DNA of 64,000 nucleotides from an uncultured Collinsella sp. (GTDB lineage: Bacteria; Actinomycetota; Coriobacteriia; Coriobacteriales; Coriobacteriaceae), in NCBI GenBank assembly GCA_902495355.1, contig CABUWV010000007.1:33686-97685 (forward strand), given 5' to 3'. Under the pieces are notes generated by a model. That model was not told the DNA's origin and did not search any database. It saw only the letters and a list, made by a program, of their open reading frames with translations. Positions 4,530-43,511 of the stretch are shown in pieces. The number at the start of each line of letters is the position of its first letter. Within the stretch, counting starts at the first letter, position 1. Position numbers and translations under genes: made by a program.

Positions 4530-5918
4530 ATGATTAAGATTGCCAAGTTTGGCGGCTCGTCGGTCGCCGACGCCGAACACTTCAAGAAGATCAAGGCCAT
4601 CGTCGATGCCGACCCGGCTCGCCGTTTTGTGGTGGTTTCCGCCTGCGGTCGCCGTTTTAAGGGTGACACCAAGGTGACCGACCTGCTCTATCTGGTCAAT
4701 GCGCACGTTAAGTACCACGTGTCGTGTGAGGAGCTGCTTGAGGACATTGGCCAGCGCTATTTTGATATCGCTGACGAGCTGGAGCTCACCTATCCCATCC
4801 GTGAGGAGTTCGCGGCCTTTGCCGAGCGCGCCCGCTCGGGCGGTTACTCCACCGAGGAGCTCGTGAGCCGCGGTGAGTACTTCACCGCTCGCCTGATGGC
4901 CGAGTACCTGGGCCTGCCGTTCCTGGATGCCGCGACGGTCGTTGCGTTCCATCACGACGGTACGCTCAGCATGAACCGCACCTCCGAGCTGGTGCAGGAG
5001 TACGGTCAGCAGGGCGGCTTTGTTATGCCCGGTTTCTACGGCGCGACGCGTGAGGGCCAGATCAAGCTGCTCGATCGTGGCGGCGGCGATATCTCGGGCT
5101 CGATTTTGGCTAAGTGCCTGGGCGCCGACCTATACGAGAACTGGACCGACGTCTCGGGTTTCTATTCTGCGGATCCGCGTATTGTTCCGGAGGCTCAGCC
5201 CATTGCGCGCGTTACCTACGAGGAGCTGCGCGAGCTTTCGTACATGGGCGCAAGCGTCCTGCACGAGGAAGCCGTGTTTCCCGTGCGCGAGGCAGGCATT
5301 CCGCTGGTCATCAAGAACACCAATGCGCCGCAGGACCCCGGCACCATCATTAGCGAGACGGCTGATGAAGGCGAGGCGGAGCCCATCATTACCGGCGTGA
5401 CCGGCAAGCGCGGTTTTGTCGCCATCAACGTCGCCCGCGACCGCACCAAGCCCCGCGTCGGCTTTATGCGCCGTGCGCTTTCGGTGTTCGAGCGCTATGA
5501 CGTTTCCGTCGAGCACATGCCCACCGGTGTCGACCGCTTTGGCGCCGTGGTGCAGGAGCAGGATGTGCACGATTCACTGTACTCACTCGTGGGCGACATC
5601 CAGCAGGAGGTCGAACCGCTCGAGATCGAGGTTGTCGAGGGCTTGGCGCTCATCGCTACCGTCGGCCGCAACCTGCGCGGTCGTGCAGGTATCTCGGGCC
5701 ATCTGTTTGGCATGCTCGGCCAGGCCGGCGTGAGCGTGCGTATGATTTCGCAGAGCTGTGACGAGATCAACATCATTATCGGTGTCGAGGAGAAGGACTT
5801 CGACCTAGCGATTCGGACCATTTACCGTGCCTTCTCCGATGAGAACGGCATTGTGAAGGTCTCCGACCTGGAGGCTCCCGCGCCGGTCGATCCCGCTCTG
5901 GCCGCGCTCAAAAAGTAG
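4530..5918 (+). CDS. ask: aspartate kinase
   Basis: MIKIAKFGGSSV N-terminus, amino-acid kinase fold, C-terminal ACT-like region (LIATVGRNL...ISQSCDEINI). Confidence 0.9.
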   Translation: MIKIAKFGGSSVADAEHFKKIKAIVDADPARRFVVVSACGRRFKGDTKVTDLLYLVNAHVKYHVSCEELLEDIGQRYFDIADELELTYPIREEFAAFAERARSGGYSTEELVSRGEYFTARLMAEYLGLPFLDAATVVAFHHDGTLSMNRTSELVQEYGQQGGFVMPGFYGATREGQIKLLDRGGGDISGSILAKCLGADLYENWTDVSGFYSADPRIVPEAQPIARVTYEELRELSYMGASVLHEEAVFPVREAGIPLVIKNTNAPQDPGTIISETADEGEAEPIITGVTGKRGFVAINVARDRTKPRVGFMRRALSVFERYDVSVEHMPTGVDRFGAVVQEQDVHDSLYSLVGDIQQEVEPLEIEVVEGLALIATVGRNLRGRAGISGHLFGMLGQAGVSVRMISQSCDEINIIIGVEEKDFDLAIRTIYRAFSDENGIVKVSDLEAPAPVDPALAALKK

Positions 5919-5990
5919 CGACTGCTCGGTAGATTTTTGGGTCATGTCTCAAAAAACTAAGGCGGGGCGTTTCGTTTCGGTTTCGTTTCG

Positions 5991-6023
5991 ACGGGGCGGG
6001 TTTCGTGTCCGCCCCGTTCTTGT
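5991..6023 (+). terminator. hairpin downstream of ask (ACGGGGCGG-loop-CCGCCCCGT, then TCTTGT)
   Basis: 9-bp GC stem at 5991-5999/6009-6017. The U-tract is weak. An upstream CGGGGCG at 5963-5969 could pair alternatively. Confidence 0.45.
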
Positions 6024-6091
6024 ATACACTGGCAACAATATTCGGCCTGCTTGGCGTGCGGGCGATAGCCACAACCTTTAAAGGGGGAAGC

Positions 6092-22809: not shown

Positions 22810-24690
22810 ATGCTCAATAATCACGAGGTCAATCTAACCGACGAGGAGGCTGCCGCCGAGGTCGCCCGTGTCGCAAGGACCTACCCCGTGGTACGTTTGC
22901 TGTCGGCCGATCAGATTAAGAGCGAGCCTAACTGCCTGCTCGCCGGCGATCGCTGCCCTTGTCTGCGTCAGTCGAGTCTTGAGGCCTTGACAGATTCCGA
23001 TGAGGTGTCGGAGCAACTGCTCAACGATGGTGTTGAGTACCGCGCCCGTCTGCGCCCTCTAAAGGTCGAGGGCGAGCCTCATGTCTTGCTGATGGTGCGT
23101 CCGATCGATGGGCAAGAGGCTGCAGAAGAGGACCTTGTCTACACCGACGTGCTGACGAATGTGCGCAATCGCCGATATTACGAAGAAAAGCTCCGTAGCG
23201 CCCGCATGAAGGCCGGTGTTGCGATGATCGACCTTGATGATTTTAGGGTCTTCAACGATACGTGTGGCCGCCATGCCGGCGACCTTGCGCTCGGTGCTGT
23301 GGCAACAGCCATACGCAGCGGAATTCGTTCGACTGACGAGCTTGTACGCTATGGCTGCGACAAGTTTGTGGTCGTCATGCCCGATATTCCCTCCGATGAC
23401 TTCACCCGTCGCCTGCACCAGGTGTCCGATGCCGTTCATGCCACGATTGTTCCGGGCCATGAGTACGTGAGCTTGACGGCATGTATTGGTGGCGTTCGCA
23501 TTCATGGCGAGACGGTCGATGAGGGTGTTGGCCGCGCTGTCCAGTTACTGAGCCGTGCCAAGGCAAAAGCCGGTACGGTCGTGACCGATGCCGATTCCAT
23601 CGAGGCCTTCCAAAGCGAAAAGCCTTTGGTGCTTATTGTCGATGACTCCGACATGAACCGAGCCATTCTCAACGAGATGCTCAAGGACGAGTATTGCATT
23701 CTCGAGGCCGCCAACGGTCGTACGGCGCTCGACATGGTCGACCGCTATGGCGATGAGTTGTCGCTCGTGCTACTGGATATTGTCATGCCGGGCATAAGCG
23801 GCTTTGAGGTGCTGGCCGATCTGTCGCGCCGATCGGGTATCGACAATCTGCCTTTCATCATGATTTCGAGCGAAGATTCCGATGATATGGTTTTGCGCGC
23901 GTACGAGCTGGGCGCCTCGGACTATATCAACCGCCCGTTTGACTCCCGTGTCGTGCGCCGCCGTGTAAGCAACACCATCCGCCTATACGCCAAGCAGCGC
24001 CGCCTGACGAGCCTGCTGTCCCAGCAGTACAACGAGCGCGTCAAGAACAGTCGCATGCTCATCGACATCATGGCCGGCGTCATGGAGCTTCGCAATGGCG
24101 AGAGCGGCAGGCACGTTACGAACATCGAGAAGCTGACCGAGCTGCTGCTTGGCTGTCTGGTCCAGCGTAGCGGCACGATCTCCCTCGACAATGAGGAACG
24201 CTCTACGATTGCCCTGGCTTCGGCGCTGCACGATATCGGCAAGATGTCGATTGACGATGCGATTCTCAACAAACCCGGGCGCCTTACGCCCGAGGAGTTC
24301 GAGATTATGAAGACGCATACCACGATGGGCGCCGACATGTTGCTTGAGCTGGGCCGCCATCACGTCGGCAATGCGCTTATGGAATATGCGTACCAGATTG
24401 CGCGTTGGCATCACGAGCGCTGGGACGGCAAGGGCTATCCCGATGGCCTTAAGGGCGACGAGATTCCCATTGCCGCGCAGGTGGTCTCGGTGGCCGACGT
24501 GTATGATGCGCTGACGAGCGTGCGCGTGTACAAGGACGCTATCCCGCACAAGGAGGCGATCCAGATGATCCTGGACGGTAAGTGCGGTACCTTTAACCCA
24601 CTGTTGCTCGACTGCCTGCTCGAGGTGCAAGACCGTATTGCCGAGACGTTGGCACGCCCCGCCGACGTTGTCGCGTTTCCCACGATTTAG
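22810..24690 (+). CDS. multidomain c-di-GMP protein: Cys-containing N-terminal region, degenerate GGDEF, REC receiver, HD-GYP phosphodiesterase
   Basis: The GGDEF fold carries RYGCDKF in place of GGDEF but keeps RSTD (RxxD) upstream. REC: LIVDDSD...LLDIVMPG. HD-GYP: ALHDIGK...HHERWDGKGYPDG. Confidence 0.85.
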   Translation: MLNNHEVNLTDEEAAAEVARVARTYPVVRLLSADQIKSEPNCLLAGDRCPCLRQSSLEALTDSDEVSEQLLNDGVEYRARLRPLKVEGEPHVLLMVRPIDGQEAAEEDLVYTDVLTNVRNRRYYEEKLRSARMKAGVAMIDLDDFRVFNDTCGRHAGDLALGAVATAIRSGIRSTDELVRYGCDKFVVVMPDIPSDDFTRRLHQVSDAVHATIVPGHEYVSLTACIGGVRIHGETVDEGVGRAVQLLSRAKAKAGTVVTDADSIEAFQSEKPLVLIVDDSDMNRAILNEMLKDEYCILEAANGRTALDMVDRYGDELSLVLLDIVMPGISGFEVLADLSRRSGIDNLPFIMISSEDSDDMVLRAYELGASDYINRPFDSRVVRRRVSNTIRLYAKQRRLTSLLSQQYNERVKNSRMLIDIMAGVMELRNGESGRHVTNIEKLTELLLGCLVQRSGTISLDNEERSTIALASALHDIGKMSIDDAILNKPGRLTPEEFEIMKTHTTMGADMLLELGRHHVGNALMEYAYQIARWHHERWDGKGYPDGLKGDEIPIAAQVVSVADVYDALTSVRVYKDAIPHKEAIQMILDGKCGTFNPLLLDCLLEVQDRIAETLARPADVVAFPTI

Positions 24691-24714
24691 TTTGAACAAA
24701 GGAGTTTTTAATCC

Positions 24715-25071
24715 ATGATTTCCATGCGTGAGGCGTATGAGAAGATCGGCGCTAATTATGATGACGCGTGCGCTCGGCTGATGGGCGAGGAAATGCTTGC
24801 CCGCTTTGCCCCCAAGTTTTTGGATGACGAGAGCATGGACAAGCTGGAGGCCGCCATGGCGGCAGGAGACGCCGAAGGTGCGTTTATGGCATCGCACACG
24901 CTCAAGGGCGTGAGCCAGAACCTGGGATTCGATAATCTGTACGAGCCGGCGGTCGTGGTGACCGAAGCGCTGCGCGGCGCCGATGCCGTTGACGGCGCTC
25001 GCGAGGGAATGCATGCGTTGCAGCAGCAATATGCGGCTACGATGTCGGCCCTGCGCGAAGCGGCTGAATAA
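24715..25071 (+). CDS. Hpt (histidine phosphotransfer) domain protein
   Basis: SHTLKG phospho-histidine motif, about 118 aa and helical. Lies 24 nt after the upstream stop with an AAAGGAG RBS. Confidence 0.75.
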   Translation: MISMREAYEKIGANYDDACARLMGEEMLARFAPKFLDDESMDKLEAAMAAGDAEGAFMASHTLKGVSQNLGFDNLYEPAVVVTEALRGADAVDGAREGMHALQQQYAATMSALREAAE

Positions 25072-25095
25072 GAGCTTGCGAGCCTTGATGACTAT

Positions 25096-25159
25096 GAGAG
25101 TGGATAATCTCCCGTTTTAGGCCCGGTGGTGGCCTCGAAGTGGGAGATTATCCACTCTC
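25096..25159. repeat. perfect 18-bp-stem hairpin at the high-GC/low-GC boundary
   Basis: GAGAGTGGATAATCTCCC (25096-25113) and GGGAGATTATCCACTCTC (25142-25159), with inner AGGCC/GGCCT. A partial extra copy, ATCCACTCTC, lies within 25176-25190. Confidence 0.8.
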
Positions 25160-25300
25160 GTTCGATACGTGTCCAAAATCCACTCTCACCCCTTCTGATT
25201 AGTGAATGGGCTATGCGCACTGGCGGGGCTTTCCGCATGCAATCAATATCGTTGTTCGATAAACTGTTCGAATAACGATAGAGTCGATGAGGGTGAGTGT

Positions 25301-25861
25301 ATGTCTAACAGCGTTCAGCGTATGGCCAAAGCGGGCGAAAATATCAGGAAGCTTGGCTTTTGCATGGCAGCCGTTTTTGCAGGGATGCTCGTCGCTTTTG
25401 CCGCGTTGGTTGTTTACGTGATCTGGTATGCGGTTGCAAACGTTGCTTCTGTCGATTCATTCGGCGTCGTGACGCTTCTCGATGGCGGGTGCATCGTTAT
25501 CCCAAGCGGACTGTGCCTGGCACTCGTCGTGGGTATTTCGCTTGTCGTTCTGTGTGGGATCAGCCGTAACATCTCGCGAGGCGTCTCGCCCTTTACCAAG
25601 ACGCATGTGCGGCTTATCCGTGTTCTTGCGCTTGCCTTTGCTGTTAACGCCGCGGTTTCGCTTATTGGTGCCTACGGATCGGTCAATCTTACCATTGGTG
25701 GGCTGGAGCTTTACGTCGTGCCTCATTCCTTCGTTATTGAGATTTGCCAAGGCGTTGCCTTTGATGCGGGGTCGCTTATCGGCGCAGTTGTCTGTTTGTT
25801 TATCTCGGCGATCTGGAGTTATGCCTCGCTGCTCCAAGAGCAGTCTGACGAGCTTGTGTAG
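25301..25861 (+). CDS. DUF2975-family membrane protein
   Basis: About four TM segments, ISRGVSPFTKTHVRLIRVLA and C-terminal SLLQEQSDELV resemble the DUF2975 pattern as I recall it. Immediately followed by a small Xre HTH gene, the usual partner. Confidence 0.65.
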   Translation: MSNSVQRMAKAGENIRKLGFCMAAVFAGMLVAFAALVVYVIWYAVANVASVDSFGVVTLLDGGCIVIPSGLCLALVVGISLVVLCGISRNISRGVSPFTKTHVRLIRVLALAFAVNAAVSLIGAYGSVNLTIGGLELYVVPHSFVIEICQGVAFDAGSLIGAVVCLFISAIWSYASLLQEQSDELV

Positions 25862-25869
25862 GAGGAAAC

Positions 25870-26199
25870 ATGAGCTATCTCATCATCGAGCTTGAGACGC
25901 AGCTGCTTAAGACCGGAAAGACCAGCGCTGATCTGATTCGGGCGACGGGGCATACTCCGGCTAATATTTCAAAGCTTAGAAACGGAAAAATTAAAGCTAT
26001 TCGCCTTAAGACGCTTCTCGATATTTGCGATGAACTTGACTGTCAACCGGGAGATATTATTCGGCGGGTGAGTGAGAAAGAGCTTGAGGAGCTTATTGTT
26101 GAGCGTGCAAAAAATGTCGTGAGGCAGATGCGGAATGGTGGAGGCAATGAGGCGTCGCTTCCGACATCAGTCTTTGCTGTAGATTTGAGCGACGAGTAG
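25870..26199 (+). CDS. Xre/Cro-type HTH transcriptional regulator (YozG-like)
   Basis: HTH LIRATGHTPANISKLRNGKIKAIRLKTLLDICDELDCQPGDII. 8-nt gap after the DUF2975 gene. Confidence 0.8.
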   Translation: MSYLIIELETQLLKTGKTSADLIRATGHTPANISKLRNGKIKAIRLKTLLDICDELDCQPGDIIRRVSEKELEELIVERAKNVVRQMRNGGGNEASLPTSVFAVDLSDE

Positions 26200-26233
26200 C
26201 ATATAGCGAGCAGCTAAAACGAGATATTGGTGT

Positions 26234-26265
26234 GATGGGGCCCGTGTCTAGCGCGGGCCCCATCT
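26234..26265 (+). terminator. intrinsic terminator after the HTH gene
   Basis: GATGGGGCCC (26234-26243) pairs with GGGCCCCATC (26256-26265), followed by TCTTT. Confidence 0.6.
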
Positions 26266-26344
26266 CTTTAAATTATCTTGACAAATATGAGTTATCGAAA
26301 AACAATAACAACCATGCAAAACGATAAAGGAAAGAAGGAACGAT

Positions 26345-27106
26345 ATGAGCGGTTTTTCTATCAAGCAGAACGGGGGTCCAATGAACGCATCAGCGATTAA
26401 GCTATCAAAGGTGTCAAAGCGCTACGGGAAACGGCGCGTTTTGCATGACGTTTCCTTCGAGGTGCATCAGTCTGAGCTCTGTGCCCTTGTCGGTGCAAAC
26501 GGTGCGGGCAAAAGCACGCTTATTAAAATCGTCTTGGGCCTCTGCGAGCCATCGTCGGGGAGCGTGGAGCTCTTTGGAGGCAAATCAAAAAGAGAGCTTG
26601 GCTTGATGCGGACGCGTGTCGGCTATGTGCCAGATTCCAGCGGAGCATACCAATCCCTCAGTGCGGTTGAGAATCTCCAAATCCGATGTTTGGAATGGGG
26701 GCTTGATGCGAATCGTGAGATTCCTCGCGTTTTGAGCCTAGTTGGACTGGATGCCGATGAGAAAAAGAACATGAGCAGTTTTTCTCTGGGAATGAAACGG
26801 CGGCTGGATATAGCTACGGCTTTGTTGGGTGACACTGATCTGCTTATTTTTGATGAGCCAGCGAACGGGTTGGACCCGCTGGGCATCGAGAGTATATGGG
26901 CCCTTATCGGTCGATTGAATCGAGAACAGGGTAAGACCATGCTCATCTCTAGCCATGATTTGGATGAGTTGGCATCAGTTGCAACAAGTTGCGTGTTTAT
27001 CCATGACGGCGAACTGCTGAAAAAGGAACCGATGGACGTCATAAGGGATGAGGCATCGTCCCTAAAAGAGTATTACAGGCGCTTGATGAAGGCGGTCTCG
27101 CTATGA
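26345..27106 (+). CDS. ABC transporter ATP-binding protein (ABC-2/LanF-like)
   Basis: Walker A GANGAGKST, signature FSLGMKRR, Walker B LLIFDEPANGLD. Strong RBS GAAGGA. The Q-loop position reads VPD (acidic rather than Gln). Confidence 0.85.
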   Translation: MSGFSIKQNGGPMNASAIKLSKVSKRYGKRRVLHDVSFEVHQSELCALVGANGAGKSTLIKIVLGLCEPSSGSVELFGGKSKRELGLMRTRVGYVPDSSGAYQSLSAVENLQIRCLEWGLDANREIPRVLSLVGLDADEKKNMSSFSLGMKRRLDIATALLGDTDLLIFDEPANGLDPLGIESIWALIGRLNREQGKTMLISSHDLDELASVATSCVFIHDGELLKKEPMDVIRDEASSLKEYYRRLMKAVSL

Positions 27107-27927
27107 AGCGGGCGATCCATCCCATAAAGGCAGATATGATGCGTTTGCACAGGATGTTTCCGGCGAAGTTTGGTCTTACGCTTATGCTGGCGTTCGGCCT
27201 TCTCTTCTGTGTCTTTCTAAAAAACGGAACAACGTTGCTCGCCTTTGGCAATAGCGTTTTTGGGGAGGATATTGGTTTCTGCTGGAATGTAATCGATCCT
27301 TCTGCACCCGATGAGTCCCTTGTGCGCAGTGCTTTTGCCGGCACCTCCCTGTTCGTTCCGCTCATCGTTTGCCTGGCGATTTTACAGGAGCGCGGCTATG
27401 AAGAGGGATGCCGAATTTCTTCAGCAAGAGGTCTTGCCCGCTTTAACGGGGCTCTGGCACATGCACTTTCGTCTTCTTTAATAATCGGCGCAGCATATAG
27501 TGCGCTTTGCCTTCTTCTTTTTGCAATAGCCATAATACGTGGAGGGCATAACTACTCGCACGACATGCTAACTGCATTTTTGCCCGCAATGATAGTCAAC
27601 GCCGTATTGGTGATATCGGTTGCGCTGGAGACGGTGACCATCTATCGGATTACAGGCAGCGCTGTATTGAGCGGGGCTGCGATAATAATTGGATTTGTCA
27701 TGAGCTTGACGCTCTACGGAACTTACCTTCAGACGCCCATACCGTCCTTGCGATGGATCTTCTTTCTTCCGGGGCCGTACCTTGGAGTCGGATGTGCCCT
27801 TGGGTATAGCGATATGGGGCAGCTGACGCTTCTGGGATATGGCGCGGCAGCCAGCTGTCTGTCGGTATTGATTTACGCTCTCTTGAGCTTTCGCGCTGGG
27901 GGTGTGCTCAATGGCTCGTCAGATTAA
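27103..27927 (+). CDS. polytopic membrane protein, putative ABC-2 permease subunit 1
   Basis: ATGA start/stop overlap with the ATPase gene, about six hydrophobic segments, no recognisable family motif. Confidence 0.6.
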   Translation: MKRAIHPIKADMMRLHRMFPAKFGLTLMLAFGLLFCVFLKNGTTLLAFGNSVFGEDIGFCWNVIDPSAPDESLVRSAFAGTSLFVPLIVCLAILQERGYEEGCRISSARGLARFNGALAHALSSSLIIGAAYSALCLLLFAIAIIRGGHNYSHDMLTAFLPAMIVNAVLVISVALETVTIYRITGSAVLSGAAIIIGFVMSLTLYGTYLQTPIPSLRWIFFLPGPYLGVGCALGYSDMGQLTLLGYGAAASCLSVLIYALLSFRAGGVLNGSSD

Positions 27928-28729
27928 AAGACTTCTCCAGTCAGAATTGAAGCATGTGAGCAAATGGACGTACGCCTTAATCCTGGTAATTTATGCGTGC
28001 ATGGTGGTATTGCAGCTTAATTCTTTCCCGATGTGGTTCTGCAGCCTCCGTGAGAACAGTTTCTTGGGCTTTTTCCCAGACCCGACGCTTCGGCTATCGG
28101 CGGAGGATGTCCTTCTATTTGGTAATGCAGAGGTTTTTCGCGGTCTGCTGTTCAACGTAGCCCCGTTGGCTCATGCATTGTTCTTTCCGTTCATCGCGGC
28201 TTGCATTGTGCCGTGCTTTGTCAGTTCGGGCTTTATTGAGGAACCGTGGGGGCTGTCGGAGGCTCGGGGAGGGAAGCGTGTGTGCGCTATCGTTGCGCGA
28301 GTGGTGCTGTCTTCTTTTGCCCTTTTGGGCGCGTTTGTCCTGTCGAGTGTCGTTTTGTACTGTCTTAACTGCGTAATCGTTTTGGATGCTCGGCAGTATT
28401 TCGACCTGCATGTATTTTGCTATCGACTTCTTCTGGCGAGTGTCGTCTGCCTTGCATACGTGGTCTCTTGCGTGATCGTTGTTTCCTATTTTGGGTCCGG
28501 CTTCGGTCCGATTGGCATGCTGTTGCTTGTCAACGTCGTAGCGATCTACATACAGCTCGGGACCAATTCCATGCTTCCGCTTCCAGCCTCGATGCTCATG
28601 TGGATTTGTGGCGTGACCCCGTTGGGGAATAGTCAATGCATTTCGATTCTAATTGACTGCCTAATAAACGTAGCAAGCGTTTTTGCCATTTGCTTTACCG
28701 TCGACCGATTGCGGTCGAGATTTCTTTGA
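27911..28729 (+). CDS. polytopic membrane protein, putative ABC-2 permease subunit 2
   Basis: Overlaps the previous gene by 17 nt (ATG at 27911; GTG at 27902 is an alternative). About six hydrophobic segments. Confidence 0.6.
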   Translation: MARQIKRLLQSELKHVSKWTYALILVIYACMVVLQLNSFPMWFCSLRENSFLGFFPDPTLRLSAEDVLLFGNAEVFRGLLFNVAPLAHALFFPFIAACIVPCFVSSGFIEEPWGLSEARGGKRVCAIVARVVLSSFALLGAFVLSSVVLYCLNCVIVLDARQYFDLHVFCYRLLLASVVCLAYVVSCVIVVSYFGSGFGPIGMLLLVNVVAIYIQLGTNSMLPLPASMLMWICGVTPLGNSQCISILIDCLINVASVFAICFTVDRLRSRFL

Positions 28730-28772
28730 TTGTTTGTGAGGGAAAATCATACCGAGCATACCAAATACAGGG

Positions 28773-28808
28773 GGGGTGGCGGGCACCGTGGCTGGTGTCC
28801 GCCACCCC
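28773..28808. terminator. GC-rich hairpin between convergent genes (candidate bidirectional terminator)
   Basis: GGGGTGGCGG (28773-28782) pairs with CCGCCACCCC (28799-28808). Confidence 0.5.
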
Positions 28809-28842
28809 GGCATGGAAGGTTTAAGCCTGCGTGATTCGCGAG

Positions 28843-29652
28843 CTAGCGAGCCTGCTTAACCTTTGCCGCTGCCTCGACAAACGACTTCCACAGGTTAAAG
28901 TCGGTCTCGAGCGTCTTCCACGTGTACTCAGGGTGCCATTGTACGCCCAGGCAGAAAGGCTGGCCTTCAACTTCGATGCACTCGGGAACGCCGTCGGTTG
29001 CCTTGGCGACCAAGCGCGTGCTCTTACCCAGACGGTCGACGCAGCAGTGGTGTGCGGAGTTGGTCTGGATTAGCCTGTGCCCGCCAACCGCGCGTTCCAG
29101 CAGCGAGCCCGGCACGACCTCGACGGGGTGCACGGGATCGTTGAGCACGTGGGTGTGACGCCACTGCGTGCGACCCTCGCGCGCACCCAGGCTCGGCACG
29201 TCCATGCACAGGGTGCCGCCGGTGGCGACGTTGAGCAGCTGCGTGCCGCGGCAGGTGGTAAAGAGCGGCTTTTTGGCGCGGATTACCTCGTCGACCAGCT
29301 TAAACTCAAAGCTATCGCGGATCTCGCAGCAGAGGGTGGGGTCGTAGGGTCGATCATCGCCCCAACGTTTGGGATTGACATCGGGGCCGCCGGGAATGGC
29401 GATACCGTCAGCGATTTCCACGTAATGACGGATGACCTCAATGTCCTCGGTGATGGACATCTGCAGCGGCAGGCCGCCGGCGGCAAGAATGGCATCGACA
29501 AAGACACTTGCGATTTCCTCGTTGGGGGAGAGCGTCTCGCTCAAAAACGGCTTTGCTTCTTCCCAACGCGGTGCCACCAGGATGAGCGGACGGTCGGTGG
29601 GGGCAACGTCGACGTGCGGGGTATAGGACGAGGAAGTATGGGTTCCGATCAT
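28843..29652 (-). CDS. class I glutamine amidotransferase / peptidase C26 (gamma-glutamyl-GABA hydrolase-like)
   Basis: GIAIPGGPDVNP, nucleophile CRGTQLLN and VQWHPE motifs. Confidence 0.8.
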   Translation of the reverse strand: MIGTHTSSSYTPHVDVAPTDRPLILVAPRWEEAKPFLSETLSPNEEIASVFVDAILAAGGLPLQMSITEDIEVIRHYVEIADGIAIPGGPDVNPKRWGDDRPYDPTLCCEIRDSFEFKLVDEVIRAKKPLFTTCRGTQLLNVATGGTLCMDVPSLGAREGRTQWRHTHVLNDPVHPVEVVPGSLLERAVGGHRLIQTNSAHHCCVDRLGKSTRLVAKATDGVPECIEVEGQPFCLGVQWHPEYTWKTLETDFNLWKSFVEAAAKVKQAR

Positions 29653-40438: not shown

Positions 40439-40512
40439 AATCGACTGCCTGCCATTCGCAACGTTAAAATACTGCAATGAGGCACAAGACTTGCGTTGCG
40501 GATGGACAGATT

Positions 40513-41175
40513 ATGGGGCGTAATAAATATCCCGAGGAGACGGTTGCGAAGATTCTCGACGCGGCGCTGGAGCTATTCTGCGCACAGGGTTATGAGGGGA
40601 CGAGCATTCAAGATATCGTCGACCGCCTCGATGGCATGACCAAGGGTGCTGTCTATCATCACTTTAAGAGCAAAGAGGAGATTTTCAACGCCGCATTTGA
40701 TCGGGCAATGGCTCCGATTGTTGAGCAACGTCGCTCAACGCTTGGTATCGGCAATATGACCGGAGCCCAAAAGCTCAAGCGATTGTACGCGCCCGAGTCT
40801 GTCGTTCCGCAAATTGAGCTATGGGCACGCATGCATCCTGCGGCAGATCCGGTAAAAAGCTCGCGTCTACTGGCGATGCAGTACCAGGGCTCGTTTGACG
40901 AGTCGGCCGATGGCTGTCTCTTGCCAGTAATCGAGGAGGGCATCGCTGACGGCTCCATTGCGTGCGAATGTCCGCGCGAAGCGGCAGAGGCGGTATCGTT
41001 GTTGGCGAATCTTTGGCTGCTGCCGCTGTTCCGTCCGCTTGAGACCAAGGATCGAATGCTCGCTCGCGCGCAATGTTTGGCGCAGATGGCGGCCGCGGTG
41101 GGGCTCGATTTGGGTAATGAAGTGCTCCAGACAACGGCTCAGATTTGGGACGTATGGGACCGCGCCGGGTGGTAA
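40513..41175 (+). CDS. TetR/AcrR-family transcriptional regulator
   Basis: N-terminal HTH ILDAALELFCAQGYEGTSIQDIVDRLDGMTKGAVYHHFKSKEEI. Confidence 0.85.
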   Translation: MGRNKYPEETVAKILDAALELFCAQGYEGTSIQDIVDRLDGMTKGAVYHHFKSKEEIFNAAFDRAMAPIVEQRRSTLGIGNMTGAQKLKRLYAPESVVPQIELWARMHPAADPVKSSRLLAMQYQGSFDESADGCLLPVIEEGIADGSIACECPREAAEAVSLLANLWLLPLFRPLETKDRMLARAQCLAQMAAAVGLDLGNEVLQTTAQIWDVWDRAGW

Positions 41176-41190
41176 TATAGATACCAACGG

Positions 41191-41244
41191 TATTTAATGA
41201 CTTGAAAAGGGTAGCCACGGCTGCCCTTTTCAAGTCATTAAATA
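41191..41244. repeat. perfect 21-bp-stem hairpin between the TetR and MFS genes
   Basis: TATTTAATGACTTGAAAAGGG (41191-41211) and CCCTTTTCAAGTCATTAAATA (41224-41244), flanked by the small palindromes ATACCAACGGTAT and ACATACTAATGGTATGT. Confidence 0.85.
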
Positions 41245-41275
41245 CATACTAATGGTATGTATAGGGGACAGGCTT

Positions 41276-42538
41276 ATGGCTAGAATGCGGAGGAGTAGCG
41301 TCTCGTTGGCGCAAAAAACAGTGCGATCTATCAGGCTTTTCGGTCTTCTTGTTGCACAGCTGTGCGCGTATTCGATGTTGTCGGCACTGTGCTTTGCGTG
41401 CCCGCTTTACTTGTTCGATTGCAGCGGCTCGTCAATGTTATATGGTGCCGTCGCGGCGATAGCGTTCGTGCCGGGCGTGCTTGCGACTCCGGCTGGCGGA
41501 ATCTTGGCGGATCGTGGGAGACATCGCGGGGTTCTTGTGGTGCTTGGCATTGTTCTGATGGCTGCATCGCTGTTGTTTATCCCCATGAAGCGGTCGCTGC
41601 CTCTTGCCGTTGTCGTGATGGCAATACTTTGCGTCCAATATGGCATCCAATCGCTGCTGAAACCGATGCTTCAAATTGAGACGGTGCACATGATGGGCCA
41701 AGAAAAGGTTGAGCGTGCCACAGCGTTGGTCTCGCAGGTAACCATGGCGAGCAATATCTTGGGGCCTGTAGTCGGGACGGCAGTCTATGGGTGCTTTGGT
41801 ATCGATGCTCTATGCGAAACCGCGGCGTTGACGTTTGCGATGTCAGCCCTGCTGTTCGGGGGCACACTCAAGCGATATGCCTCATCTGGAATGACAGGGG
41901 ACAGTACGACTTGCTTGACATGCCGAAGCGATTTCCGGGAGTCGATTCGGTACCTGGTTCAAAACGCATCATTGCTCGTTGTGTTTTTGCTTGCGGCCAT
42001 TTTGAACCTTGCGTTAGTTGGGTTAACGATTGGTGCTCCCATTGTTGTTTCAAAGCATCTCGGAATACAGTCATCCTTTGTTGGGATTATTGAGGTGGCT
42101 ATGGGCTTGGGTGGTCTTGTCGGCAGTGCTTTGGTCGGTATTTGGCCGCATCGTTTTTCCTTCAAGGGCATATGTCGATATGTTGCGATGATTTGTTTTG
42201 GGGTCGTACCGATTATTGTCACGCTACTGAGCGGTCCTGATGAATTAGCGTTTGCCGCGCTTGCGGCCGGCTCGGCATGGGCCATGGTATGGGCAAGCAT
42301 TACATCGGTTGAAATCGTTTCATTCGTTCAGCGGTCAACGCCAAAGGAACTCTGCGGAAAAGTGCTGGCACTCGTTTATATGACGCTTTCCTGTGCAACG
42401 CCTATTGGCCAATTGGTTTACGGGCTCGCATATGATCGATGGACACCGGCGATTGTATTCGCAGGAATGTTGGCGGTGCTGACGTTGACTACGGTGCAGT
42501 TTTATCGGTTGAAAAGTCGCTTGTGGCAATTGTCTTAA
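41276..42538 (+). CDS. MFS transporter
   Basis: About 12 hydrophobic segments and an MFS loop motif (GGILADRGRHR). ATG at 41276 lies 7 nt after AGGGGA. Confidence 0.8.
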   Translation: MARMRRSSVSLAQKTVRSIRLFGLLVAQLCAYSMLSALCFACPLYLFDCSGSSMLYGAVAAIAFVPGVLATPAGGILADRGRHRGVLVVLGIVLMAASLLFIPMKRSLPLAVVVMAILCVQYGIQSLLKPMLQIETVHMMGQEKVERATALVSQVTMASNILGPVVGTAVYGCFGIDALCETAALTFAMSALLFGGTLKRYASSGMTGDSTTCLTCRSDFRESIRYLVQNASLLVVFLLAAILNLALVGLTIGAPIVVSKHLGIQSSFVGIIEVAMGLGGLVGSALVGIWPHRFSFKGICRYVAMICFGVVPIIVTLLSGPDELAFAALAAGSAWAMVWASITSVEIVSFVQRSTPKELCGKVLALVYMTLSCATPIGQLVYGLAYDRWTPAIVFAGMLAVLTLTTVQFYRLKSRLWQLS

Positions 42539-42653
42539 GGCGCAGGGACACCGTGGATTTGCGGAAGCATTGTCCCGCCGCGCCGGGACGCCATTGTCTG
42601 GGCATGTCTCTCCTTCGTCTACAATATCGTGCAGACGAAGGAGAGGCATGCCC

Positions 42654-43511
42654 ATGATCAAGATGTTTGCGAGTGACTTAGACGGAACGCTGCTCAACGC
42701 CCTGCACGAGGCAGATGGGACCATCCGCCGTGCCATTCGCGAGCTGACTGAGGCTGGCCTGCATGTGGTTCCCGCGACCGGGCGCTCGACGTTGCCGATC
42801 GGCGAGCATGGCTTTACGGGGCTGGCGCTCGATGCCTGCTGCTCTAACGGCTCCATCGTGCGCGACAGTCATGGCGAGGTGCTCAAAACCTGGACCATCG
42901 ATCCGCAGGTTACCGAGGAGCTGCTCAAGGCATTCCCGGACATTTGCTTTGATTGCTCCACACCCGATGGCATGTTCTCGAGCGGTTCGTTCGAGATGCA
43001 TCAGGCGGGCTTTAAAAAGGACAGCCCCATCAAGCGTATTGTGATGCGCGGCATGCGTGCACGTGGCGGGTATCACGAGGAGCAGTATTTCGACCAGTCG
43101 ATCGGTGACATCCTGCGCCACGATGTGTGCAAGATCAACTGCCGCGTGACCTCGCCCGAGCTGGAGCGCGACCTTAAGGCGTATTTGGCCGAGCGTTCGG
43201 ACCGTGTGGTCAACGCGCCGTTCGATCCGGTGATGTTTGAGATCACGGACGTGGCATGTAACAAGGGCGAGAGTGTGGCTTGGCTGGCGGGCTACTACGG
43301 TATTGCCGAGGATGAGGTTGCGGTTTACGGCGACGGCGGCAACGATATTGCTATGCTCAAGCGTTTCCGCCACAGCTACGCGACCAAAAACGGCAGCGAC
43401 GCGGCCAAGGCCGCCGCGAGCGCGACTATCGGTAGCTGCATGGTCCACGCCGTCCCCAAACATATGTTCGCCACCATGCGCAAGCAAAACTCCCGCACCG
43501 TCATCGAATAA
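42654..43511 (+). CDS. Cof-type HAD-IIB phosphatase
   Basis: FASDLDGTLL (motif I) and YGDGGNDIAML (motif IV). Confidence 0.85.
   Translation: MIKMFASDLDGTLLNALHEADGTIRRAIRELTEAGLHVVPATGRSTLPIGEHGFTGLALDACCSNGSIVRDSHGEVLKTWTIDPQVTEELLKAFPDICFDCSTPDGMFSSGSFEMHQAGFKKDSPIKRIVMRGMRARGGYHEEQYFDQSIGDILRHDVCKINCRVTSPELERDLKAYLAERSDRVVNAPFDPVMFEITDVACNKGESVAWLAGYYGIAEDEVAVYGDGGNDIAMLKRFRHSYATKNGSDAAKAAASATIGSCMVHAVPKHMFATMRKQNSRTVIE

Follow-up and report, generated by a model that had tools for sequence, protein, structure and literature searches.

The stretch of Collinsella DNA analysed here (64,000 nucleotides; contig CABUWV010000007.1, positions 33,686 to 97,685), which we call the window, contains an island of low GC content whose genes resemble a bacterial peptide transporter and its regulators. 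All five genes lie on the plus strand and encode a membrane protein with four predicted transmembrane (TM) segments, a helix-turn-helix (HTH) regulator of the HTH_26 family, an ATP-binding cassette (ABC) ATPase and two permeases (Table 1). In related cassettes, which we designate by locus numbers such as L009, the ATPase gene is preceded by a gene for a short cysteine-rich peptide, and the window carries a deletion scar at this place.

An island at a single site in Collinsella genomes

In 1-kb windows, GC content is 0.49 to 0.53 at 25 to 29 kb, whereas it is approximately 0.57 to 0.65 in the rest of the window. The island as a whole has a GC content of 0.509, and the remaining window one of 0.605. 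GC content at third codon positions (GC3) is 0.50 to 0.59 in the five island genes and 0.71 to 0.82 in flanking genes on both sides. A previous reading of the sequence alone, which we refer to as the original prediction, had put the contrast at 42-52% against 65%. Sliding-window GC and GC3 values bear out the contrast, although these figures were somewhat exaggerated. The same reading had placed the edges of the island at two hairpins, both of which exist, but the true ends, at ~25088 and ~28830, lie outside them, so both hairpins are within the inserted DNA.

The original prediction had proposed a comparison with related strains. We gathered 80 Collinsella loci by means of the flanking GGDEF-REC-HD protein and scored nine local genes in each. 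The island is present in 37 loci and absent from 30, and the other 13 are uninformative because their contigs end too early. In all 37 occupied loci it has one and the same position, flanked by the Hpt gene and the C26 peptidase gene. In empty loci the Hpt gene is followed directly by the convergent C26 peptidase gene, with ~112 bp between them. The flanking proteins are 94-99% identical to those of the window in occupied and empty genomes alike. Alignment to empty-site loci indicates that ~3.74 kb was inserted and that ~75 bp of the Hpt/C26-peptidase intergenic terminator was replaced.

It could be supposed that the region is instead ancestral, that its low GC content reflects the composition of membrane proteins, and that it has been deleted where it is lacking. 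Its occurrence at a single site in all carrying Collinsella genomes would suit this idea, as would the lack of obvious mobility functions: the island contains no integrase or transposase genes, as originally predicted, and a search for direct repeats at its flanks and for a target-site duplication found neither. However, the GC3 deficit is also seen in the soluble ATPase and the HTH protein. Empty sites possess their own intact GC-rich bidirectional terminator, and in allele L079 the left half of this terminator is kept immediately before the first island bases, which shows that the island was inserted into the terminator and that the empty genomes did not arise by deletion. Moreover, homologous cassettes with a GC content of ~50% occur in other hosts of 63-66% GC at unrelated chromosomal sites (after RecQ in L009, before Ldh in L010 and after FeoAB in L098). 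We therefore regard an ancestral origin as very improbable. Since the same gene set, with the same base composition, is found at unrelated sites in other hosts, the region is best described as a small mobile cassette. Deviant composition, presence or absence at a fixed site and occurrence at other sites in other hosts are all features of genomic islands, and the 3.7-kb island is a real, horizontally acquired accessory cassette.

The Hpt/C26 spot is locally hypervariable exactly at the insertion point of the island, despite the 94-99% identity of the flanking proteins. In empty-site loci (such as L021, L022, L024, L035 and L052), the ~40 bp that separate the Hpt stop codon from the terminator occur in at least three unrelated sequence versions.

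Table 1. Features of the island (positions within the 64-kb window)
Feature	Position	Strand	Description
Inserted island	25088-28830	+	Junctions mapped against 30 empty-site Collinsella loci; GC contrast
Left palindrome	25096-25159		Arms 25096-25113 and 25142-25159, 18 nt, 100% complementary, 28-nt loop
Operator box 1	25246-25262	minus	Within inverted repeat ~20-55 bp upstream of sensor gene
Inverted repeat	25248-25279		ATCGTTGTTCGA-N8-TCGAATAACGAT; just 5' of sensor gene; holds operator box 1
Membrane protein, putative sensor	25301-25861	+	186 amino acids, four hydrophobic segments
HTH_26 regulator, putative repressor of both promoters	25870-26199	+	109 amino acids, Xre/Cro type, YozG type
Intrinsic terminator of sensor-regulator operon	26234-26274	+	Stem 26234-26264, 14 bp, 10 GC pairs, then TCTTTAAATT
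Transporter promoter	26278-26309	+	TTGACA at 26278, 17-nt spacer, AACAAT as -10
Operator box 2	26291-26309	+	GTTATCGAAAAACAATAAC; overlaps -10 region of transporter promoter
Relic ATG-AGC of peptide gene	26345-26350	+	Scar at 26350/26351; in-frame fusion to ATPase
ABC ATPase	26345-27106	+	PF00005; 253-amino-acid open reading frame
Permease 1	27103-27927	+	274 amino acids, ~six TM segments; S-x-A-R-G motif
Permease 2	27902-28729	+	275 amino acids from GTG, ~six TM segments; paralogue of permease 1
Right GC-rich hairpin	28773-28808		Arms 28773-28787 and 28794-28808, 15 nt, 93% complementary

A cysteine-rich peptide gene in related cassettes

The order ATPase, permease 1, permease 2 is always kept in contigs with distant relatives of permease 1. 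In L009 and L010, an open reading frame (ORF) for 41 amino acids lies between the conserved promoter and the ATPase gene, behind a strong ribosome-binding site. The same peptide gene is carried by L079 and L094, in which the island occupies the Hpt/C26 site, and related peptides are encoded in the more distant cassettes L016, L011 and L098. A peptide gene is also present between promoter and ATPase gene in L099-L102 and L218. One exact peptide variant occurs in 215 blocks of the contig index, with the Hpt/C26 site in the four contigs shown.

The peptides are 39 to 42 amino acids long and cationic, with six conserved cysteines (MNWIVKPMYVDPGGGCNGYCKTYCTARLCNNKCSKFSCAIY in L009, MSWIVKPSYVDPGGGCNGYCKKFCGARVCTKNCSKNYCGVYS in L079, MEWYIDTYQFVAGGGTGCDYRCTAKLCSGNCDLACFIRW in L016 and MEWYAVVSGGNNCGLNSCVAFACAKGNTCPCLGVNICFH in L011). 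Met1, Trp3, a run of glycines and a ladder of cysteines are conserved in the alignments, and the overall form is M-x-W...GGG-C-x3-C-x3-C-x4-C-x3-C-x4-C. Conservation is higher over the first 15 residues than in the cysteine-rich part, which carries a charge of +4 to +5 in the Collinsella forms and differs from strain to strain. Between lineages, the proportion of synonymous differences (pS) is 0.62-0.69 and that of nonsynonymous differences (pN) is 0.19-0.22, giving a pN/pS of ~0.3, and the large excess of pS over pN indicates that the gene is truly coding.

The peptide corresponds to 11 clusters among 5.8 billion clusters, none of which is named. Searches of Pfam, NCBIfam and the Protein Data Bank (PDB) revealed no relative, the hits to myticin and a scorpion toxin being at chance level. 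The complete cassettes encode no LanB, LanC, LanM, LanT, LanP or LanI beside the peptide; as judged from this lack of modification enzymes and from the few Ser and Thr residues in its sequence, the peptide is not a lantibiotic. We considered a 258-amino-acid radical S-adenosylmethionine (radical-SAM) protein, encoded ~4 kb upstream, as a peptide modifier and rejected it: the gene is in the conserved flank, in 7 of 7 Collinsella loci examined, and does not accompany the cassette to its sites in other hosts. Peptide-positive alleles have a hairpin followed by a run of T residues (GCTGTTGCCAGAC..GTCTGGCAACAGCGGTTTTATT) between the peptide and ATPase genes, which is the usual layout for making much peptide and less transporter.

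Deletion of the peptide gene and conservation of the remnant

In an alignment with L079, L094 and L009, the promoter, operator and ribosome-binding site are all retained in the window, as is the start of the peptide gene up to its second codon. From there the window sequence jumps to the spacer just 5' of the ATPase's own ATG at 26381. The deletion removed ~165 bp, corresponding to the peptide gene and the attenuator, and its breakpoints share the trinucleotide AGC. Among 36 readable occupied genomes, ~32 have the same deletion, two have a slightly larger one (ATGAGC joined to GCATCAGCG) and two retain the peptide gene. The original prediction had raised the idea of an orphan peptide-resistance module. 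Its orphan status now has a concrete basis, because the scar lies where sister alleles and all distant relatives encode the six-cysteine peptide.

In all window-type alleles the relic ATG is in the ATPase frame, with no stop codon between (MSGF[SA]IK[QR]NG[GR]P-MNAS...). The 253-amino-acid ATPase ORF thus begins with a 12-residue extension made up of the peptide start and the old spacer, although the ancestral start is probably the ATG at 26381. Where peptide-positive alleles have an in-frame TAG in their spacer, the window reads AAG. This change and the preservation of the frame suggest that selection may favour translation from the peptide's ribosome-binding site. The extension itself (26345-26383) is variable among peptide-less alleles.

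Selection on the island genes was gauged by comparing the window with 14-26 further island alleles from Collinsella, which are mostly peptide-less. The ratio of nonsynonymous to synonymous substitution rates (dN/dS) is 0.035 for the HTH regulator, the most constrained island gene, 0.14 for the ATPase and 0.18 for the sensor. It is 0.34 for permease 1 and 0.33 for permease 2, and flanking genes have ratios of 0.03-0.14. A disrupted or shortened permease 1 is apparent in 2 of 36 occupied alleles (L096, 14294-15107, and L089, ~15093), and these lesions appear to be rare signs of decay of the orphan cassette. Since dN/dS is well below 1 and only about 2 of 36 alleles are disrupted, the cassette is under purifying selection without the peptide, with the permeases somewhat relaxed. 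Such persistence fits a protective transporter, whereas a pure exporter without cargo would not be expected to persist in this way.

These observations bear on a different role for the peptide, as a secreted signal (a pheromone or quorum signal) or a metal-binding thiol peptide. The ABC system would then be a mere exporter, and the window's cassette a decaying or repurposed leftover. In keeping with this, the cassette has no immunity protein or processing enzyme, the N-terminal 15 residues of the peptide are more conserved than its cysteine-rich part, dN/dS of the permeases is raised (~0.33) and some sensor genes are frameshifted; a membrane sensor with an HTH regulator would also suit autoinduction (PMC3709268). 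Nonetheless, an idle exporter should decay, yet ~34 of 36 alleles are intact, the relic reading frame is open in all window-type alleles and dN/dS is well below 1. The cysteine-rich part is also strongly cationic and strain-variable, as antimicrobial cores are. On balance we think a signalling or metal-binding role rather unlikely.

A candidate heterodimeric type V transporter

The reading frames of the ATPase, permease 1 and permease 2 overlap successively, the more likely start of permease 2 being the ATG at 27911. For the ATPase, the best NCBIfam model is TIGR03740 (lantibiotic protection), which it matches with 186.6 bits, far below the family cut-off of 309.75. Its nearest solved relatives in a PDB sequence search are the nucleotide-binding domains (NBDs) of ABCA3, ABCA7, ABCA4 and ABCA1, TM0544 (1vpl) and NosF, which belong to the type V class. 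The Q-loop glutamine is replaced by aspartate (GYVPD aligned to CPQ of ABCA3), and Asp occupies this position in all relatives.

Neither permease matches a Pfam or NCBIfam model at E <= 0.01, the LanE/LanG (MutE/MutG) and ABC-2 models included. A scan of 11 permease 1 relatives with the same databases gave nothing significant, the best result being ABC2_membrane at E = 0.3-0.55 in single members, and a PDB sequence search with a permease 1 profile also gave nothing. We found 28 relatives of permease 1 among 1.84 billion representative proteins, including eight distant full-length sequences with 21-45% identity. An AlphaFold2 (AF2) model of permease 1 built on that alignment has a predicted local distance difference test score (pLDDT) of 80 and a predicted template modelling score (pTM) of 0.80. 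Its best Foldseek matches in the PDB are all type V transmembrane domains (TMDs), with TM-scores of 0.5-0.63: NosY, PmtD, ABCG25, ABCG5/8, TarG and Wzm. The permease 1 and permease 2 families align over their whole length (hhalign probability 97%, E = 6e-11) and are therefore paralogues, and an S-x-A-R-G motif after the second helix is common to both. With an NBD of the ABCA/NosF/DrrA class and a TMD modelled with a type V fold, the system is probably a type V (ABC-2) exporter.

The original prediction had likened these three proteins to LanFEG, a self-immunity exporter that is a type V transporter with F2:E:G stoichiometry and a modified Q-loop (bioRxiv 10.1101/2025.10.09.681468). The likeness holds for the architecture. 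In LanFEG (NisFEG, NukFEG) and CprABC of Clostridioides difficile, as in the island, one ATPase gene is followed by two weakly similar six-TM permease genes in overlapping frames; the fold is of type V (ABC-2), and an acidic residue replaces the Q-loop glutamine. Such systems also exist without a peptide gene, as orphan resistance modules (PMC5786555). The island thus appears to encode one ATPase and a heterodimeric type V membrane domain, with E- and G-like subunits that may, by analogy, assemble as F2:E:G.

By sequence, however, the island transporter does not seem to be a LanFEG member. Its ATPase is below the TIGR03740 cut-off, and its permeases match no LanE/LanG or ABC-2 model. The predicted resemblance to the LanF E-loop extends to the acidity of the residue but not to its identity, which is Asp and not the Glu that defines this loop. 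The partner of the island transporter is a short cysteine-rich peptide without a lanthipeptide synthetase, LanT or LanI, and LanFEG is accompanied by a LanRK two-component system in place of the Xre-type protein and membrane protein of the island.

These differences help in weighing the proposal that the cassette is a general transporter for resistance to antimicrobial peptides or lantibiotics of other species, of the LanFEG/CprABC kind, and that the small ORF is incidental. The ranking of TIGR03740 as best ATPase model, the F + E + G architecture with its acidic Q-loop position and the known orphan CprABC-type systems (PMC5786555) are all compatible with it. Against this, all lineages examined, including those with a permease identity as low as 28%, have the peptide gene together with the transporter and share the promoter and operator. 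Together with the distance of the ATPase from its family cut-off, the failure of the permeases to match LanE/LanG models and the Asp in the Q-loop, this makes a general resistance function unlikely.

PmtABCD (or PmtCD), the staphylococcal exporter of phenol-soluble modulins (PSMs), offers another comparison, being an ABC exporter of type V that is reserved for small unprocessed peptides. In the structural comparison with permease 1, PmtD ranks second (9q2n_A, 6xjh_A). Pmt has a dual role, in secretion and in protection of the producer, and is regulated by a GntR-type repressor. Its likeness to the island transporter is in the fold only, at 9-11% identity, and its PSM cargo consists of amphipathic helices without cysteines, unlike the island-type peptide.

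Regulatory genes and operator boxes

The regulator was predicted to be a YozG-like Xre protein encoded after a small membrane protein, and this assignment is well supported. It matches PF13443 with 64.1 bits (cut-off 22, E = 1.4e-17) and is 35-48% identical to YozG-type regulators. Its nearest plasmid-borne relatives are from Priestia, Bacillus cereus (pCER270), Providencia, Streptomyces, Legionella, Parabacteroides and Kitasatospora. At 10 of 12 plasmid loci, the gene directly upstream of the regulator homologue is annotated as DUF2975 or is of the same size with a sub-threshold DUF2975 score. The conserved C-terminal tail of ~40 amino acids (26075-26196), which ends in VFAVDLSDE (SVFAVDLSSE in L009 and NVYAVDLSEE in L098), is missing from the plasmid-borne YozG-type proteins annotated at these loci (~68-83 amino acids). 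This tail may be a surface that contacts the membrane partner.

The label DUF2975 that had been given to the membrane protein itself is not supported by Pfam. The window protein has no Pfam match at E <= 10. It is conserved in L009 (39% identity) and L098, and of these copies the former does not match the DUF2975 model (PF11188, gathering score 27 bits) and the latter scores 10 bits (E = 0.86), whereas a true member, from B. cereus pCER270, scores 141.8 bits. Comparison by hhalign with four and then eight plasmid-derived bona fide DUF2975 proteins gave a probability of 0.5% (E = 0.12), both alignments being shallow. The weak alignment is colinear over 82 columns, in which VSPFT pairs with AFS and the C-terminal QSDELV with ENDLTV. 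By position, directly upstream of a YozG-type HTH_26 gene, and with ~four TM segments and a length within 145-230 amino acids, the gene does correspond to YoaS. We conclude that the protein is seemingly a sequence orphan in the YoaS/DUF2975 gene position and a possible member of DUF2975 at most.

Several metagenome and NCBI versions of the sensor (P0186, P0188, P0191 and other 197-amino-acid clusters) have a 1-nucleotide frameshift at ~25550 and continue in the frame of the window ORF 25482-25895. We considered whether the 197-amino-acid variants are a second isoform and rejected this, as they are products of +/-1 frameshifts reading the alternative frame. The frameshifts may reflect inactivation in some strains, or errors of sequencing or assembly.

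The YoaS-YozG operon is described as being conserved across phyla and as having inverted-repeat operators upstream (bioRxiv 10.64898/2026.09.15.751765). The island pair has the same gene order, sizes and short spacing, and also has an inverted repeat upstream. It differs from YoaS-YozG pairs in that its membrane protein fails the DUF2975 model, its HTH protein has the additional tail, and the pair is tied to a defined target operon.

A terminator and a TTGACA box separate the two transcription units, as originally predicted (Table 1). A 17-nucleotide box, TTATCGAANNACAAYRA, occurs exactly twice in the 64-kb window, where 0.16 copies are expected, with one copy at each promoter, the second at 26292-26308. 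Every peptide promoter examined (L009, L079, L098, L016 and L011) has kept this second box, GTTATCGA-N-ATAAC, even in cassettes whose permeases are only ~28-45% identical. The presence of just two boxes in 64 kb and their conservation at peptide promoters fit repression of both units by the HTH protein. The cassette is probably switched by the pair of membrane sensor and repressor, acting on one operator box at both promoters.

A similar arrangement is present beside the cytolysin operon of Enterococcus faecalis, where CylR1, a small multi-pass membrane protein, and CylR2, a small Xre-type HTH repressor, are thought to de-repress the toxin-peptide operon as extracellular peptide accumulates (PMC3709268). 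CylR2 is not among the PDB matches of the island HTH protein, and the comparison is therefore an analogy only. Moreover, CylR1 has three TM segments and the island protein four, and cylR1R2 is divergent from its target operon, whereas the two units of the island are in tandem. The length of CylR1 is ~94 amino acids.

A probable remnant of a peptide export and immunity cassette

Taking these results together, we think it probable that the island is a peptide-less, immunity-only remnant of a bacteriocin-like peptide export and immunity cassette, in which a regulated transporter protects the cell from the peptide of its neighbours. Here we infer an antimicrobial activity for the peptide, a role in export and immunity for the transporter, and a sensing mechanism. 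The complete cassette, which occurs in gut Coriobacteriia, consists of two units. The first encodes the four-TM membrane protein and the YozG-type HTH protein, its putative repressor, and the second comprises a sigma-70-like promoter with its operator, the peptide gene, a putatively leaky terminator, the ATPase gene and the genes for two paralogous type V permeases. The HTH protein would repress both promoters through the common box TTATCGAA..ACAA, and the membrane protein might relieve this repression on sensing peptide outside the cell, in the way put forward for CylR1/CylR2.

The cassette is not accompanied by any further exporter, protease or modification enzyme, which suggests that the transporter serves both to export and to protect. 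An F2-E-G-type transporter could export the peptide and also keep it out of the producer's membrane, as Pmt does with PSMs and LanFEG with lantibiotics. ABC transporters do act in bacteriocin immunity, and those for enterocins of the leaderless and circular kinds are examples (PMC10598978). The microhomology deletion of ~165 bp in the lineage of the window has brought the transporter genes immediately downstream of the ribosome-binding site and start codon that belonged to the peptide gene. The window strain has thereby lost peptide production while probably keeping regulated protection against producers of the same species, and would be an immune non-producer.

Several points weigh against this interpretation. 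The peptide matches no known bacteriocin family, and its AF2 model, with a pLDDT of 46, is unusable. Collinsella is a strict anaerobe, so that formation of three extracellular disulfides is not assured. The six cysteines could instead bind metal, or could be targets of a modifying enzyme whose gene lies elsewhere. Gene order and motif position are the only grounds for proposing that the HTH protein represses and that it interacts with the membrane protein. Copies of the sensor gene with frameshifts occur in some metagenome assemblies, and permease dN/dS values above those of flanking genes are compatible with partly relaxed selection.

A bolder version of the remnant hypothesis, which we put forward as tentative, is that the peptides are an undescribed family of ribosomal peptides in human-gut Coriobacteriia, exported and resisted by a dedicated heterodimeric type V transporter with an Asp 'D-loop', and controlled by a diverged, peptide-sensing YoaS/YozG-like pair.

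Hairpins, a dispersed repeat and neighbouring genes

The left hairpin region, taken as RNA, has a folding energy of -48.7 kcal/mol (z = -5.7). Every occupied allele has the 18-bp arms at its left edge, in strictly conserved form, and the palindrome is lacking in the L009 and L098 cassettes. The arms (GAGAGTGGATAATCTCCC...GGGAGATTATCCACTCTC) occur in at least 120 metagenome contigs of Collinsella-like genomes, and in a metagenome scan 104 of 123 copies were not beside the Hpt or sensor gene. The 28-nucleotide interior is variable between copies yet still pairs, and there are other short repeats around the copies. Companion repeats such as GAGCGTGGATTTTCGGACGC and CTCATTTAAGTACGTCCCCAATGAG are often nearby, and a related half-arm of the palindrome is at 25169-25187.

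A scan of 24900-29000 with Rfam gave no match. This result and the dispersed copies led us to dismiss the ideas of a simple terminator and of a known RNA. Located within the inserted DNA but not peculiar to the cassette, the left hairpin is one of many dispersed copies of a Collinsella repeat resembling repetitive extragenic palindromes (REPs). The dispersed palindrome could be an element similar to REPs or miniature inverted-repeat transposable elements (MITEs), or a structured RNA. In L068, a contig of a Collinsella metagenome-assembled genome (MAG), the Hpt gene and hairpin are followed by a diverged second hairpin and then by pdxT/pdxS, with no island (5825-6050). Two copies of the repeat may have recombined here, or the assembly may be chimeric at the repeat.

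The right hairpin separates the permease 2 gene from the C26 peptidase gene, which converge on it. All occupied alleles have this hairpin and no empty one does; it is the island's own terminator, replacing that of the empty site.

Directly left of the island, the segment at 22810-25071 encodes a GGDEF-receiver-HD(-GYP) protein and a stand-alone Hpt protein. Both genes are core, being present in occupied and empty genomes, and lie outside the island. A second, milder dip in GC content (0.54-0.56) occurs at 40477-43511, over genes for a TetR-family regulator, a major facilitator superfamily (MFS) transporter and a HAD-family hydrolase. It is just after an ammonium transporter gene, and may be another accessory efflux cassette.

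Implications

Among the Actinomycetota of the human gut, Collinsella aerofaciens and its relatives rank with the most prevalent. In the literature searched, no bacteriocin described for Collinsella turned up. The locus analysed here exists in three states at one chromosomal site: empty, with a full cassette that includes the peptide gene, and with a cassette from which the peptide gene has been precisely removed. Since this is the layout expected for sensitive, producer and immune non-producer strains, the locus provides a directly testable system for strain competition in the gut.

As far as the searches of their sequences indicate, the peptide, both permeases and the sensor belong to no named family. 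Characterising the peptide and the permeases could add a new class of peptides and a new branch of type V ABC exporters. Likewise, in the cassette a YozG-type regulator and the membrane protein paired with it can be connected with a defined target promoter, whose operator is conserved, and this could help to explain the role of YoaS-YozG pairs. If the proposed mechanism is true, peptide sensing that switches on immunity or export would be the first concrete function for this widespread module, and a prevalent gut commensal would have a polymorphism of producers, immune cheaters and sensitive strains at a single locus.

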